Shown here piece after piece: positions 16,742 to 27,962 of a stretch of 64,000 nucleotides of DNA. The stretch is from an uncultured Dorea sp. (GTDB taxonomy: Bacteria > Bacillota > Clostridia > Lachnospirales > Lachnospiraceae). Positions within the stretch are counted from its first letter, which is position 1; each line of letters opens with the position of its first letter. A program made the position numbers and the translations under genes. The notes under the pieces are model-generated. The model did not search any database. It saw nothing but the letters and a program-made list of their open reading frames with translations, and had not been told where the DNA came from. The DNA lies in NCBI GenBank assembly GCA_910579925.1, contig CAJTVY010000005.1:16948-80947 (forward strand), read 5' to 3'.

Positions 16742-16996
16742 TTACAAAAACAAGTTTACATCTTCCTGAAATTCTCTCTTTTTCATGCATAAGTCATTCA
16801 GAAGGCCCTGCTGTTCCTCAAGAAGCCCCAGAATCTCCCAGTCGGCATCCGGGCAATTTTCATACATAAATTCAAGCCTTTGGTAATATTCATTGATCTC
16901 CATGTCCTCCTCTTCCTCTCTGCTGCGAATCTGCTTATTCATTTGTCTTAATTTTTCCGCCTTTTGGGAGATTATCTTCCTATCAATTCCAACCAT
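16742..16996 (-). CDS. Small (84 aa) acidic helical protein, last gene of the T7SS operon
   Basis: MVGIDRKIISQKAEKLRQMNKQIRSREEEEDMEINEYYQRLEFMYENCPDADWEILGLL.. The RBS GAGGAG lies 6 nt before ATG 16996 and starts immediately after the upstream stop codon. No family was recognised. Confidence 0.6.
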   Translation of the reverse strand: MVGIDRKIISQKAEKLRQMNKQIRSREEEEDMEINEYYQRLEFMYENCPDADWEILGLLEEQQGLLNDLCMKKREFQEDVNLFL

Positions 16997-17007
16997 CAAA
17001 TTCTCCT

Positions 17008-17799
17008 CTATTCTATTAATAGATATACTTCCATCCCCAGGATCTCTGAGTATTCTTTTTCTTTTCGTGTTTTAACTTTTTCAAGATATTCGCATTTTTC
17101 CCTCATGCGGTCATTCGGAAGCAGATTTCCCGCCCTGTCATATTCCATAGCGTTTGCAATCTCCAGCACCAGTGCATGGCTGGGTATCTCTGGTCTTCCC
17201 CCCTTAGTTCCTGCATAACAGAATCGGCCTGGGTCTTCCTGGTCTACTGAATTTCTGACTCTGATCACTTCTTGATACGTCTCCTTTACAAGATCTTTTA
17301 GTTCGTCTGTCACAGTCTCATCGCCTGTTTCCAGATGTTGTTCCAGAATGCTTAACTGTCCCTTCTTCAGGTATTCGATATAGAGATTATTTCTCAAGAA
17401 GATATATTCCAGTCCCATAGTAGATTCCCTCTCATACAGGTTCTGATCTTCTGGCTTCGGACAGGCAAATCCCAGACTGCAGTTCCTTAATTCCTCATCC
17501 AGCCGCTTAAGGTCAAGCATTTCCAGCAGATACGCATCAAGATTTGCCCTGTAGACCGCCTGCATACACAGGTAACGGTAACTAAGACGCCCCCGGCCTC
17601 CTCCTTTTAGCAGTCCCTTCTCTTTACACAGTTCATGGTTATAGCGATAGATATACGGATTCTCTGAAATCTCCTCTGCCGATGGGACTTTTAGTCTGTC
17701 CGCAAGCGCATATTCACCCATAGTTTCCTCCTCTGACTTCATAAAATACCCAGTCGTTCCTGCTGCAAGAACCAGCAGAAATACAACATACTTTTTCAT
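17008..17799 (-). CDS. Exported or membrane-anchored protein, candidate immunity protein for the adjacent LXG toxin
   Basis: MKKYVVFLLVLAAGTTGYF is a signal peptide or signal anchor without a lipobox Cys. The rest is a ~240-aa soluble domain. It lies immediately downstream of the toxin. An alternative GTG start at 17820 gives a GTGA overlap with the toxin stop. Confidence 0.6.
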   Translation of the reverse strand: MKKYVVFLLVLAAGTTGYFMKSEEETMGEYALADRLKVPSAEEISENPYIYRYNHELCKEKGLLKGGGRGRLSYRYLCMQAVYRANLDAYLLEMLDLKRLDEELRNCSLGFACPKPEDQNLYERESTMGLEYIFLRNNLYIEYLKKGQLSILEQHLETGDETVTDELKDLVKETYQEVIRVRNSVDQEDPGRFCYAGTKGGRPEIPSHALVLEIANAMEYDRAGNLLPNDRMREKCEYLEKVKTRKEKEYSEILGMEVYLLIE

Positions 17800-17816
17800 C
17801 TCATTCCTCACTTGGC

Positions 17817-26060: not shown

Positions 26061-26092
26061 CTTTCTTCCTCCTTCCGGAAACATCGCTTTAC

Positions 26093-27766
26093 TTAAAATG
26101 TTACATCTGCATTACGCCCTGTCAAATAGCCGGAAACCGGCTGATTTACAGATCTGTCTGTCATACTGAGCGGATTGGCAATAAACTGGTAGACTCGAAT
26201 ATACTCTGCACTGCCAAGCCGGGTATATGCAAGTTTTGAGGCAAAGTCTCCTAAAATCTTCTGATTCGCAAAATGATTCTTCTCCCTGGTTTCCTTCGCC
26301 GCACTCAGCCCTGCTTCCACAGCTTCCCTGGCTTCTTTTGCCGACTCCCTGGCATGCCTGTTCAATTCATCTGTATACTCCCTCGAAGAAACGACTGATT
26401 TCTGTGCATACTCAACATATGCCTGGTTGTTTTTCAATAAGGCTTCCTGCATACTTCTATGATTTTCCTTGATTCCCTGGATGTACTGTGAAAGAAAATA
26501 ACCGTCCACTTGCGGTGAAAAGCCGGAAAGCCGCCCATTATACGCCGTCACTGCAGCAAGTTCTTCCTCTTGTCTGTGCTGAAAAACTTTTTTCACCTCG
26601 TCCGCATTTGCGGTGATCGGATCTACATATTCTGCCTTGATCAGTTCCGTAATTCCGTCAATATCCAGGCTTTTTGCCCTTTCTATTTCTTCCAGTAACA
26701 ACTCAAATTCCTTATTCTGTTCCGTTAATAATAAAATCCATTCCAGATGATCTTCTGATTCCGGCAATTCCTCAGTTCCGTCAGGTTCCGCAAGCTCTCT
26801 CATAACTTCTTCATTGCGGACTTTAAGATTCTCCAGTCGTCCTCCAATCTTCTCTTTATCCGCCATAAGTTCCGCCTGTCTCCTCAGTTCTTCCCGTAAC
26901 CTTTCTTCTGCTTTCTCCGTAATATTTCCGCCGTTTTCGTCAGTGGTAAGATCAAGTTCTTCCGTCTGCCCGGCAAGCGTCTGGAGCCGCTCTGTCAGTA
27001 TATTTCCGGCAGCATTCAGAGAAGCAATCTGCGCGCTTATCTCCTGTACCTGATTTCTATATTCCGTCTCCACAGACTCTGCGGACAAAGAATTTCTCTC
27101 CATATACATAGAAATATCCAACATTTCCGGCGGCATCACTTCTGCCGGCAGTTCGGGCGGTACGGCAAGAGTTACCAGATCCTGGGGACGGATTCTTTCT
27201 ATTGCCTCCATATCCTCAAGATCATGTTCCATCACACGTTCTGCGCCGTCCTGGGCATCATGAAATTCTCTTAAAATATTCTCTACATACATATAACTCA
27301 GATGGTTATTCAACGAATCTATATAACTCCTTACATGATTGAGAAGTTCATACTGCCCTTTCCCGGAATAGGTACGATTGACTGCAAATTCCAATCTGGA
27401 AACCTGGGGCGTTGTGTTAATGCTCTCCACATTCTGCGAAAAATCTGCCGGAATAATTACATATGCCCCATATCTTCCCGTCTCAAGTCCTGTTCTGGCC
27501 GCCTCTAAAGATGCATATTCGAAATCCATACCAGGAAACTTCGACAGCTTCTCTGCATAATTGACCCGTCCCCCTCTTGAAGATACTCCCTCATCCAGAT
27601 TGACTACCGCAATCTTACCAGACTCTTTTTGTTCTTCTTTGTCAGGCGCCGCATATACCTTCTGTTCTTTCGTATCACCGGATGTTTCAAAGAGGATGCC
27701 TCTCCCGCAGATAACCGCAGCGCCAAGTAAAAACGATAAAAATAAAACAATTCTCCTGTAATTCAT
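26093..27766 (-). CDS. EsaA/YueB-like (YhgE/Pip N-terminal domain) protein lacking the C-terminal polytopic region
   Basis: It has an N-terminal TM (IVLFLSFLLGAAVICG), then KIAVVNLDEGV..NYAEKL..ASLEAARTGLETGRYGAYVIIPADFSQNV, which is the YhgE/Pip-EsaA N-domain signature. A long coiled-coil region follows. The 557-aa protein ends with no further hydrophobic helices. Confidence 0.65.
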   Translation of the reverse strand: MNYRRIVLFLSFLLGAAVICGRGILFETSGDTKEQKVYAAPDKEEQKESGKIAVVNLDEGVSSRGGRVNYAEKLSKFPGMDFEYASLEAARTGLETGRYGAYVIIPADFSQNVESINTTPQVSRLEFAVNRTYSGKGQYELLNHVRSYIDSLNNHLSYMYVENILREFHDAQDGAERVMEHDLEDMEAIERIRPQDLVTLAVPPELPAEVMPPEMLDISMYMERNSLSAESVETEYRNQVQEISAQIASLNAAGNILTERLQTLAGQTEELDLTTDENGGNITEKAEERLREELRRQAELMADKEKIGGRLENLKVRNEEVMRELAEPDGTEELPESEDHLEWILLLTEQNKEFELLLEEIERAKSLDIDGITELIKAEYVDPITANADEVKKVFQHRQEEELAAVTAYNGRLSGFSPQVDGYFLSQYIQGIKENHRSMQEALLKNNQAYVEYAQKSVVSSREYTDELNRHARESAKEAREAVEAGLSAAKETREKNHFANQKILGDFASKLAYTRLGSAEYIRVYQFIANPLSMTDRSVNQPVSGYLTGRNADVTF

Positions 27767-27933
27767 CTTCTCCTTCCTTCTTTAATTATGATTCACATGG
27801 GTTTCTTTGGAATTGAAGGTAACGAACCGAAACCTTCAATACAGATTGATATAAATCTGATCTGAATTAAAATGACTTGAATCTAAAAACGATTCCTATG
27901 ACGTGTTGAACAACACAATATGTGTGTGTATGT

Positions 27934-27962
27934 ATCATACGGTATTCTCCCGGATTTGTCAA
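27934..27962 (-). promoter_or_regulatory. Candidate sigma-A promoter of the T7SS operon
   Basis: On the minus strand: -35 TTGACA (27957-27962), a 17-nt spacer, -10 TATGAT (27934-27939). The predicted leader is ~160 nt and contains a 9-bp hairpin (27812-27840). Confidence 0.6.

Follow-up and report, generated by a model that had tools for sequence, protein, structure and literature searches.

The results described here indicate that ten genes on the minus strand of a 64,000-nucleotide (nt) stretch of DNA from an uncultured Dorea sp. (contig CAJTVY010000005.1 of assembly GCA_910579925.1; hereafter the window) most probably constitute one operon for a complete and functional type VIIb secretion system (T7SSb) of gut Lachnospiraceae, together with a dedicated effector module. 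It is a T7SSb of the known kind in trimmed-down form and not a new kind of machine. This reading draws directly on the gene content, four family memberships (EssC, EssB, EsxA and Lap1), the export motifs, the folds of the effector, the linkage of toxin and immunity genes, and conservation. A preliminary description of the same DNA had proposed a T7SSb operon with toxin cargo, and the proposal holds, as EssC, EssB, the WXG100 protein and the TIGR04197 helper all score above curated cut-offs and the effector model is papain-like. The ten open reading frames (ORFs; g1 to g10 from position 27766 down to 16742) were all found on the minus strand, as first described, and all are intact. The tight packing was likewise recovered: computed with the start codons of the preliminary description, the junctions from g1 to g10 measure 32, 4, −4, 34, 40, 25, 12, 17 and 11 nt, that is, from a 4-nt overlap to a gap of at most 40 nt, the −4 junction being a GTGA overlap of the g3 stop with the GTG start of g4. 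A purine-rich ribosome-binding site lies before every gene except g3. As to start sites, that of the 147-residue g3 product is backed by orthologue alignments and the GTG of g4 is taken as correct because the first strand (MxLTx) is conserved, whereas the helper g7, first described as 99 residues from ATG 19568, more likely comprises 102 residues from TTG 19577, which is well spaced from its ribosome-binding site and matches both the orthologues and the public gene call. The identical intact locus is present on independent metagenome contigs.

Among the components placed by family profiles, the ATPase EssC (g6, 1417 residues, 19594–23847) scores 1306 bits against TIGR03928 (T7_EssCb_Firm, cut-off 778.4), matches PF01580 with E = 1.3e-49 as well as solved structures, and has two transmembrane helices at about residues 150–194. 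Its three P-loops, already noted in the preliminary description, are located at residues 587 (GTTGSGKS), 933 (ASSGFGKT) and 1211 (GNTAAGKT). Residues 58–868 align to residues 163–972 of Bacillus subtilis YukB (9qks_G, E = 5.9e-198), but the segment before the first transmembrane helix spans only about 150 residues versus about 255 in YukB, the N-terminus being 105 residues shorter. Lacking these ~105 residues, EssC must be devoid of one FHA domain (FHA1); Pfam gives no FHA match in EssC, the YukB alignment begins inside FHA2 (residue 163), and we infer that a single N-terminal domain equivalent to FHA2 is retained. Binding of the YukC dimer falls to FHA2, on which the co-purification of EssB and EssA also depends (PMC12637312, PMC10765036). 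Among the other loci retrieved (numbered L003 upward), EssC homologues of 1253–1316 residues occur in L044, L051, L060, L061, L068, L069, L072 and L073, where the ORF opens about 40–60 residues before the first transmembrane helix. These loci, from Lachnospiraceae or Clostridium, still encode EssB and the EsaA-like protein, and their EssC proteins apparently lack all FHA domains, with start-site or frameshift artefacts as a possible cause; if real, an FHA-less EssC alongside EssB conflicts with the model in which FHA2 docks EssB. The EssC proteins of L019 and L020 (1530 residues) may carry two FHA domains.

The EssB/YukC-type pseudokinase membrane protein (g5, 365 residues, 23888–24985) matches PF10140 with 245.6 bits (cut-off 27.4; E = 9.4e-73) over model positions 1–354 of 357 and TIGR03926 with E = 9.9e-58, although its 195.8 bits in the latter lie below the equivalog cut-off of 229.75. 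It also matches the YukC/EssB structures 6z0f, 2ynq, 9qks and 4ann, and has a transmembrane helix at residues 197–219. The WXG100 protein EsxA (g2, 97 residues, 25767–26060) matches PF06013 (31.5 bits, cut-off 27.3), TIGR03930 (E = 1.4e-9) and the solved EsxA structures 3zbh and 2vs0. The WxG motif first read in it is present as W44-E-G46 and is accompanied by a C-terminal YxxxD motif (Y84-AEF-D88). EsxA is 84–93% identical across species (L003–L024, L033 and L034) with EssC at 54–77% and EsaA at 45–69%, and its ratio of nonsynonymous to synonymous substitution rates (dN/dS) of 0.06 represents unusually strong constraint for a secreted protein of 97 residues. The fourth member, g7 (102 or 99 residues, 19269–19577), is a Lap1-type targeting factor of the DUF3130/TIGR04197 (SACOL2603) family, scoring 56 bits against a cut-off of 26 (E = 4.3e-15) and carrying the motifs F75-TEF-D79 (FxxxD) and D32xxT...GN. 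The FxxxD motif is needed for LXG toxins to be exported in Streptococcus intermedius (PMC9600955).

The predicted secreted effector g8 (479 residues, 17817–19256) yielded a full-length AlphaFold2 model with a mean predicted local distance difference test score (pLDDT) of 90.8, comprising a helical bundle (residues ~1–190) and a globular C-domain (~218–479). Among helical decoys, the N-domain model resembles the LXG domain of TelA (8gmh; Foldseek probability 0.99, E = 0.12), and 6 of 35 g8 homologues match PF04740 (LXG), the best with 2.8e-6. As a Foldseek search with the full-length model was swamped by BAR-domain and other helical matches, the C-domain was modelled alone (pLDDT 92.3) and then matched staphopain, Lpg2622, IdeS/IdeC, interpain A, 9l5u, CdiA-CT (8ssm), AvrPphB and calpain, with E values from 1.9e-4 and probabilities of 0.97–1.0 but TM-scores of only 0.25–0.40. 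The match at rank 4, 22oc, is deposited as 'CD lyase'; the rest of the strongest matches are papain-like proteases. One of them, 9l5u (E = 7e-4, probability 1.0), we take to be the Cpe1–Cpi1 toxin–immunity pair. Cys276 (in EGCGYVA), His427 (in GGHAM) and a GGDQxxP motif are invariant, and VSSWG is found at residues 442–446, where S-S-W-G starts 16 residues after His427 and occupies the position of N-S-W-G in papain. As modelled, the C-domain has a papain-like (clan CA) fold and is a putative cysteine peptidase. No Pfam model exists for it: Peptidase_C39_2 (PF13529) is reached only below threshold in homologues (best 21.1 versus 24 bits) and not at all in g8, and a profile of the domain searched against PDB sequences gave chance matches to PPR proteins only. 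A phmmer search of 1.84 billion representatives found the C-domain in 849 clusters, C-terminal in almost all of them and partnered with LXG domains, short WXG-like hairpins or giant scaffolds. In the proteins P0212, P0224 and P0234 it is fused to an LXG domain above the Pfam cut-off, whereas P0145 combines a g8-type N-domain with a different C-domain. Such shuffling of the C-domain across N-termini, together with the swap in P0145, is the modular signature of polymorphic toxins.

The gene following the effector, g9 (263 residues, 17008–17799), codes for an N-terminal signal-anchor and a conserved domain of about 210 residues, for which neither Pfam nor PDB gave a match. It is homologous to the gene directly after otherwise unrelated toxins with the same C-domain in L084 (E = 6e-11) and L082 (E = 1e-5), both values coming from a small database. 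Because this family directly follows same-domain toxins in unrelated loci, g9 is likely the immunity protein of g8. All T7SS-linked orthologues of g9 have a hydrophobic N-terminus, usually preceded by positive charges, and the domain is predicted to face outward. In L082 (7802–9378) and L086 (7153–7620), orphan toxins with the same domain are followed by proteins of the signal-peptide or lipoprotein type that show homology to one another (E = 1e-10) but none to g9, and these may represent a second, extracytoplasmic immunity family for the toxin domain. The operon ends with g10 (84 residues, 16742–16996), an acidic helical protein with invariant Cys48 and Asp52, whose orthologues occupy the same position in 12 loci; no relatives were detected outside these loci, and no Pfam or PDB match was obtained.

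A genome scan with the EsaA-like family retrieved 79 loci, nearly all from Lachnospiraceae and many from mouse-gut catalogues, the named hosts including Dorea sp. 5-2, Sporofaciens musculi, Eubacterium ramulus, Coprococcus catus, Lachnoanaerobaculum and a few Clostridium. The order esaA-esxA-essA-esaB-essB-essC is common across these loci, and the full ten-gene order including g7–g10 is kept in L003, L004, L006, L007, L009, L012, L013 and L016–L018, two of these loci belonging to the cultivable Sporofaciens musculi WCA-9-b2 (L012) and Dorea sp. 5-2 (L013). With recurrence in at least 10 species, the architecture, whose status the preliminary description had left to a neighbourhood comparison, is a conserved subtype of Lachnospiraceae. 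Compared with L003, dN/dS is 0.13 for the effector, 0.17 for g9, 0.17 for EssC and 0.10 for g10, and lies between 0.06 and 0.38 for all ten genes; by these estimates, purifying selection acts on the ten genes as one unit.

The remaining three core roles are assigned with less certainty. The first gene, g1 (557 residues, 26093–27766), codes for an EsaA-like protein of the YhgE/Pip superfamily that matches TIGR03929 (EsaA N-terminal domain) with E = 1e-18, TIGR03061 (pip_yhgE_Nterm) with 1.2e-11 and PF12698 (ABC2_membrane_3) with 1e-6; a profile of the family searched against the PDB returned coiled-coil noise only. The predicted topology is one N-terminal transmembrane helix (residues 5–27) followed by an extracytoplasmic region of about 530 residues, and the protein ends about 30 residues past a conserved YTRLGSAEY..VYQFIANP motif. 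By hydropathy, the 19 closest of 97 clusters (545–592 residues, 52–100% identity) have the same form, with no C-terminal transmembrane helix, whereas nearly all other full-length homologues (~580–850 residues) extend further by a linker and exactly one C-terminal helix. The g1 homologue opens the T7SS locus in most of the 79 loci, and the dN/dS of g1 is 0.26. EsaA proteins are known with 2–6 transmembrane helices (PMC10765036), so that the form seen here is one step beyond that range and not a new type of protein.

Between esxA and essB lie g3 (147 residues, 25319–25762) and g4 (100 residues with a GTG start, 25020–25322), neither of which gave a direct family match in the curated profile libraries. 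The small membrane protein g3 consists of an N-terminal domain of about 110 residues with a PLxDLYxLPVF motif, a transmembrane helix at about 118–138 and a basic C-terminal tail; its start and motif are conserved in 19 orthologues, 3 of which weakly match PF10661 (EssA; best E = 9e-4), and it lies between esxA and esaB as in Staphylococcus aureus. In g4, a core of about 75 residues with an MxLTx N-terminus conserved in 25 orthologues is interrupted after the first strand by a Cys-rich insertion of about 25 residues. PF08817 (YukD) is weakly matched by 3 of these 25 orthologues (best E = 0.011), beside stray matches to other ubiquitin-fold families. A profile of the 25 orthologues run against PDB sequences gave no hits, YukD included, and a profile search among 5.8 billion proteins gave 51 relatives, none annotated with PF08817; when jackhmmer was started from the genuine YukD of L084, the query was the sole match among all locus ORFs, and hhalign of the g4 family with a PF08817-annotated YukD was end-to-end and collinear but insignificant (E = 0.026, probability 1.9%). 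Because these sequence links to YukD failed, the assignments of g3 as EssA and g4 as EsaB, made from size, topology and position between esxA and essB, stay probable, not proven. The insertion in g4 (residues ~6–28; 25245–25322) is found only in the window, L003 (12487–12789) and L005 (12529–12840), with 4, 5 and only 2 cysteines, respectively, so that the cysteines are not strictly conserved, while about 20 other orthologues are plain proteins of 75–80 residues; the insertion could be a metal-binding knuckle. The statement in the preliminary description that every T7SSb role is recognizable therefore stands by profile for EssC, EssB and the WXG100 protein, with the SACOL2603-family helper placed as well, but not for the EsaA-like protein, which falls below its cut-off, nor for the EsaB- and EssA-like proteins, whose models, like that for LXG, gave no match.

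For assembly, secretion, proteolytic activity, target and antibacterial role we infer by analogy, work on B. subtilis, S. aureus and S. intermedius serving as the base for the assembly and export steps. In the predicted mechanism, EssC, as hexamers with three ATPase domains, would make up the motor in the membrane and dock the EssB pseudokinase dimer through its single FHA2-type domain, and the EsaB-like protein would clamp the contact between EssC and EssB. The EssA-like and EsaA-like proteins would complete the envelope part, the latter as a wall-spanning stalk held by its single N-terminal helix. EsxA, with its WxG and YxxxD motifs, would be co-secreted, and g7, the carrier of FxxxD, would bind the LXG-like N-domain of g8 and with it create a composite export signal that is read by EssC. 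The exported g8 peptidase would then use Cys276 and His427 to cleave a target protein or peptide inside or on competing cells, and the membrane-anchored g9 would neutralize the peptidase on the producer and its kin.

Several observations weigh against a complete antibacterial T7SSb of this kind. The EsaA score of g1, 67.6 bits, is below the cut-off of 122, hydropathy predicts no C-terminal transmembrane helix in it, and membership of the EsaB-like and EssA-like proteins in their families is weakly supported. Only a single Lap-type helper is recognizable, whereas the S. intermedius toxins need two. The effector, called LXG-like in the preliminary description, earns the name by the fold of its N-domain and by its six matching homologues, but g8 itself gives no match to PF04740 at E ≤ 0.1 and reads F-D-G at the LxG position; the N-domain may thus work like an LXG domain, with g8 formally no more than a candidate member of the LXG family. 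Moreover, the effector is 53–79% identical where EssC is 60–77% identical, diverging at the same rate, unlike hypervariable polymorphic toxins. Lastly, two g9 homologues linked to orphan toxins have no membrane anchor, and with the anchor present in some homologues and absent in others, the g9 family points to no single compartment of toxin action.

The conservation of the operon as a unit, with EssC-like divergence of the effector, is the main argument for the strongest alternative, in which the g8 protease, instead of being an antibacterial toxin, either assists the machine as an accessory enzyme or is directed at the host, with g9 as an anchored regulator or inhibitor. In the accessory version, g8 would be a T7-secreted functional analogue of EssH, remodelling the wall or processing or shedding EsaA; in the host-directed version, it would act on gut proteins like IdeS, interpain or staphopain. 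Both versions draw on the co-inheritance of g7–g10 with the machine at a divergence and dN/dS like those of EssC, on the predicted outward orientation of the immunity-like g9, and on the best structural matches of the C-domain, which are secreted bacterial proteases acting on host or extracellular proteins. EssH is a CHAP peptidoglycan hydrolase, a Cys/His peptidase with a genetic link to the ess clusters of staphylococci, and EsaA needs it to span the wall (PMC13059805). However, the C-domain is a shuffled cassette carried on LXG, WXG-like and giant polymorphic-toxin scaffolds, and a cognate g9-like gene after the toxin is the signature of a toxin–immunity pair; because of this cassette behaviour and the linked immunity family, we regard the alternative as rather unlikely. 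In addition, the fold is that of staphopain/IdeS-type peptidases and not of CHAP or NlpC/P60 wall amidases, and Foldseek also matches the interbacterial papain-like toxins 9l5u and 8ssm.

A more specific form, to which we give a slimmer chance, makes the protease and its anchored partner fixed T7SSb parts, with the peptidase acting at the producer envelope, g9 restraining it and the structured leader controlling the operon. It is allowed by the co-evolution of the module with EssC, the predicted outward-facing domain of g9 and the missing C-terminal anchor of EsaA. By analogy with EssH in staphylococci, g8 might here open the wall, or it might process the EsaA stalk with its single anchor or set it free.

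That the locus is a decaying, non-functional T7SSb remnant, its short EsaA and the loss of an FHA domain being signs of erosion, is very improbable. The EsaA-like protein does belong to the shortest class of its family, without a C-terminal membrane segment, and the EssC N-terminus is 105 residues shorter than that of YukB. Nevertheless, none of the ten ORFs is broken, the short EsaA form is shared by the 19 clusters down to 52% identity, the gene order is kept in at least 10 species, and promoter and leader are conserved; moreover, the FHA domain retained is FHA2, the one that binds EssB (PMC12637312, PMC10765036). Purifying selection on the whole operon excludes decay, and a reading as pseudogenes or a remnant was rejected on conservation and dN/dS. 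Least credible of all is the possibility that g1 is a YhgE/Pip-type phage-infection or ABC-2-related membrane protein merely adjoining the secretion genes: its matches to TIGR03061 and PF12698, its sub-threshold TIGR03929 score and the naming of some homologues as PIP/YhgE by the Joint Genome Institute point that way, but EsaA/YueB, a phage receptor, is itself a member of the YhgE/Pip superfamily, the EsaA N-terminal domain is the best-scoring model for g1, and its homologues in the retrieved loci mostly precede those of esxA, essB and essC.

The region in front of the operon is itself strongly conserved. The sigma-70-type promoter TTGACA-17-TATGAT of the preliminary description is present on the minus strand at 27934–27962, matching at 11 of 12 positions, and 16 orthologous loci share its −35 and −10 boxes; taken alone it is statistically unremarkable, as the AT-rich window contains 20 promoter-like sites against 17 expected in shuffles and a single match is not significant. 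About 30 nt upstream of the −35 box lies a direct repeat GTCGAA-N4-GTCGAA (27993–28008, minus strand), found at the same position in L003, L004, L005, L008, L009, L012 and L014; an activator, for example a response regulator, might bind this repeat. Downstream, orthologue alignments delimit a conserved 5' leader of about 160 nt (27767–27926, minus strand) with, in order, a CACAYACATAT box, a palindrome or hairpin GTGTTG-TT-CAACAC (27916–27903), a CAGATT/AATCTG inverted repeat, a hairpin TTGAAGGT...ACCTTCAA (27839–27813), the conserved AAAGAAACCCATG and the ribosome-binding site. The invariant CAYACATAT box and the GTGTTG-TT-CAACAC palindrome sit at the predicted start of the transcript. The TTGAAGGT...ACCTTCAA hairpin of 8–9 base pairs forms in all orthologues; L011, L013 (where the hairpin is duplicated) and L016 show compensatory changes in it, and its variable loop length favours an RNA hairpin over a protein-binding palindrome. 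The folding energy of the whole leader is unexceptional (z = −0.77), and no Rfam match was found for the promoter and leader region. The ~250 nt upstream of g1 (27767–28010, minus strand) are far better conserved than the encoded proteins, and the same element recurs in L003–L018; promoter and leader together possibly form an undescribed cis-regulatory region for T7SS expression. In many species, the leader motif AAACCCATG (27800–27812) has a stop codon directly 3' (ATG-TGA, ATG-TAA or ATG-TAG), which makes a mini-ORF of a start and a stop; elsewhere the position reads ATT or AAG, and the mini-ORF may be a coincidence.

The organization of the operon is worth comparing with that of known systems, the T7SSb core set being taken as EsxA, EsaA and EsaB plus EssA, EssB and EssC (PMC10765036, PMC11217815). 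The same six roles as in the Ess system of S. aureus and the Yuk/Yue system of B. subtilis occur here, three of them probably filled by the EsaA-, EssA- and EsaB-like proteins, and, as in canonical T7SSb, EssC has two transmembrane helices and three P-loops, the pseudokinase EssB is of the YukC type and the effector module follows essC. The gene order is that of S. aureus, except that esaA here precedes esxA. Whereas canonical EssC has two FHA domains, only the FHA2 equivalent is present; S. aureus EsaA combines a soluble domain of 725 residues with six transmembrane helices, against 557 residues and a single N-terminal helix in g1; EssB, at 365 residues, is shorter than YukC by about 28 residues at the N-terminus and about 80 at the C-terminus; and the EsaB-like protein has the Cys-rich insertion and, like the EssA-like protein, is too divergent for the Pfam models. 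The uniform shortening of membrane components noticed in the preliminary description is thus real, consisting of an EssC without FHA1, an EsaA-like protein without C-terminal transmembrane helices and an EssB with shorter ends. Streptococcus gallolyticus has a comparably reduced EsaA (7JQE), with two transmembrane helices and a long extracellular stalk, and most Lachnospiraceae relatives of g1 likewise have one N-terminal and one C-terminal helix; in contrast, the clade of 19 clusters to which g1 belongs lacks the C-terminal helix and lies below the published range of 2–6, and no match of g1 to the solved fragment 7JQE was found at the sequence level. Clostridia also possess the types T7SSf and T7SSj, which have phosphatase, FHA-protein or AAA+ components and no EssB, EsaA or EssA (Garrett et al. 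2024). Membership in these types was considered and rejected: genes for EssB and the EsaA-like and EssA-like proteins are present, which assigns the operon to T7SSb, and the phosphatase, FHA-protein and AAA+ components are absent here.

The effector module resembles the TelC–LapC1–LapC2 and TelA–LapA3–LapA4 sets of S. intermedius in that a TIGR04197/DUF3130 protein with FxxxD lies just upstream of the toxin, the elongated helical N-domain is similar to TelA-LXG, and the immunity gene, here a candidate, lies downstream. It differs in an N-domain below the PF04740 threshold with F-D-G for LxG, in an effector that is conserved across species and not variable, and in that no second helper of the DUF3958 type is recognizable in the operon. 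Papain-like cysteine protease toxins with an immunity partner are also found in Gram-negative bacteria, as in Cpe1–Cpi1 (PMC12136450). Like Cpe1 and the polymorphic-toxin domains Tox-PL1 and Tox-PLC39 (PMC3482391), g8 ends in a papain-like Cys/His peptidase cassette with a dedicated, probable immunity gene, but its domain constitutes a different and larger family of about 260 residues with extra helical elements in the N-lobe and the GGDQxxP motif. In contrast to Cpe1–Cpi1, g8 would be delivered by a T7SS, g9 is membrane-anchored and no Pfam model covers the domain. Compared with EssH, g8 is likewise a Cys/His peptidase co-conserved with a T7SSb cluster; however, EssH, with its CHAP fold, leaves the cell by the Sec route and secretion depends on it, whereas in g8 a staphopain/IdeS-like fold is combined with a targeting domain of the T7 type and a cognate immunity-like partner.

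Upstream of the operon, the gene of a chemotaxis receptor ends in a hairpin followed by a T-run, as read off the sequence, the terminator scan not reporting it, and the downstream nadA has an extended −10 promoter of its own. Two genes upstream, on the opposite strand, lies a serine recombinase gene of the resolvase type (204 residues, 30209–30823, plus strand); together with the chemotaxis-receptor gene it is kept beside the operon only in the closest relative, L003, the genomic surroundings of the ten-gene cluster being different in other species. Neither repeats nor a shift in composition pointed to a mobile island, and the base composition of the window likewise reveals no obvious island. 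Searches of the window found neither paralogues of the ten proteins outside the operon nor tRNA genes or Rfam families.

The preliminary description singled out a minimized variant with an uncharacterized effector module as deserving attention. The reductions are real and the toxin domain has no Pfam model; on the other hand, EsaA proteins with 2–6 transmembrane helices were already known, LXG genes are common in Clostridiales, and a 2012 catalogue already includes papain-like domains of polymorphic toxins (PMC3482391). No description of the Lachnospiraceae subtype, the EsaA with a single transmembrane helix, the single-FHA EssC or these protease-toxin and immunity families was found in the searchable literature, and they are new only in that sense, leaving the current picture of type VII secretion unchanged. 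What is known of T7SSb biology comes almost wholly from Bacilli, and here a clade of gut Lachnospiraceae, mostly from mouse, carries a complete but pared-down T7SSb. It exposes FHA1 of EssC and all C-terminal helices of EsaA as dispensable parts, which helps structural work on a minimal T7SSb. Finally, the toxin domain, present in about 850 clusters, represents a fairly widespread and uncharacterized T7SS toxin family; both it and its immunity family may be of importance when gut commensals compete.

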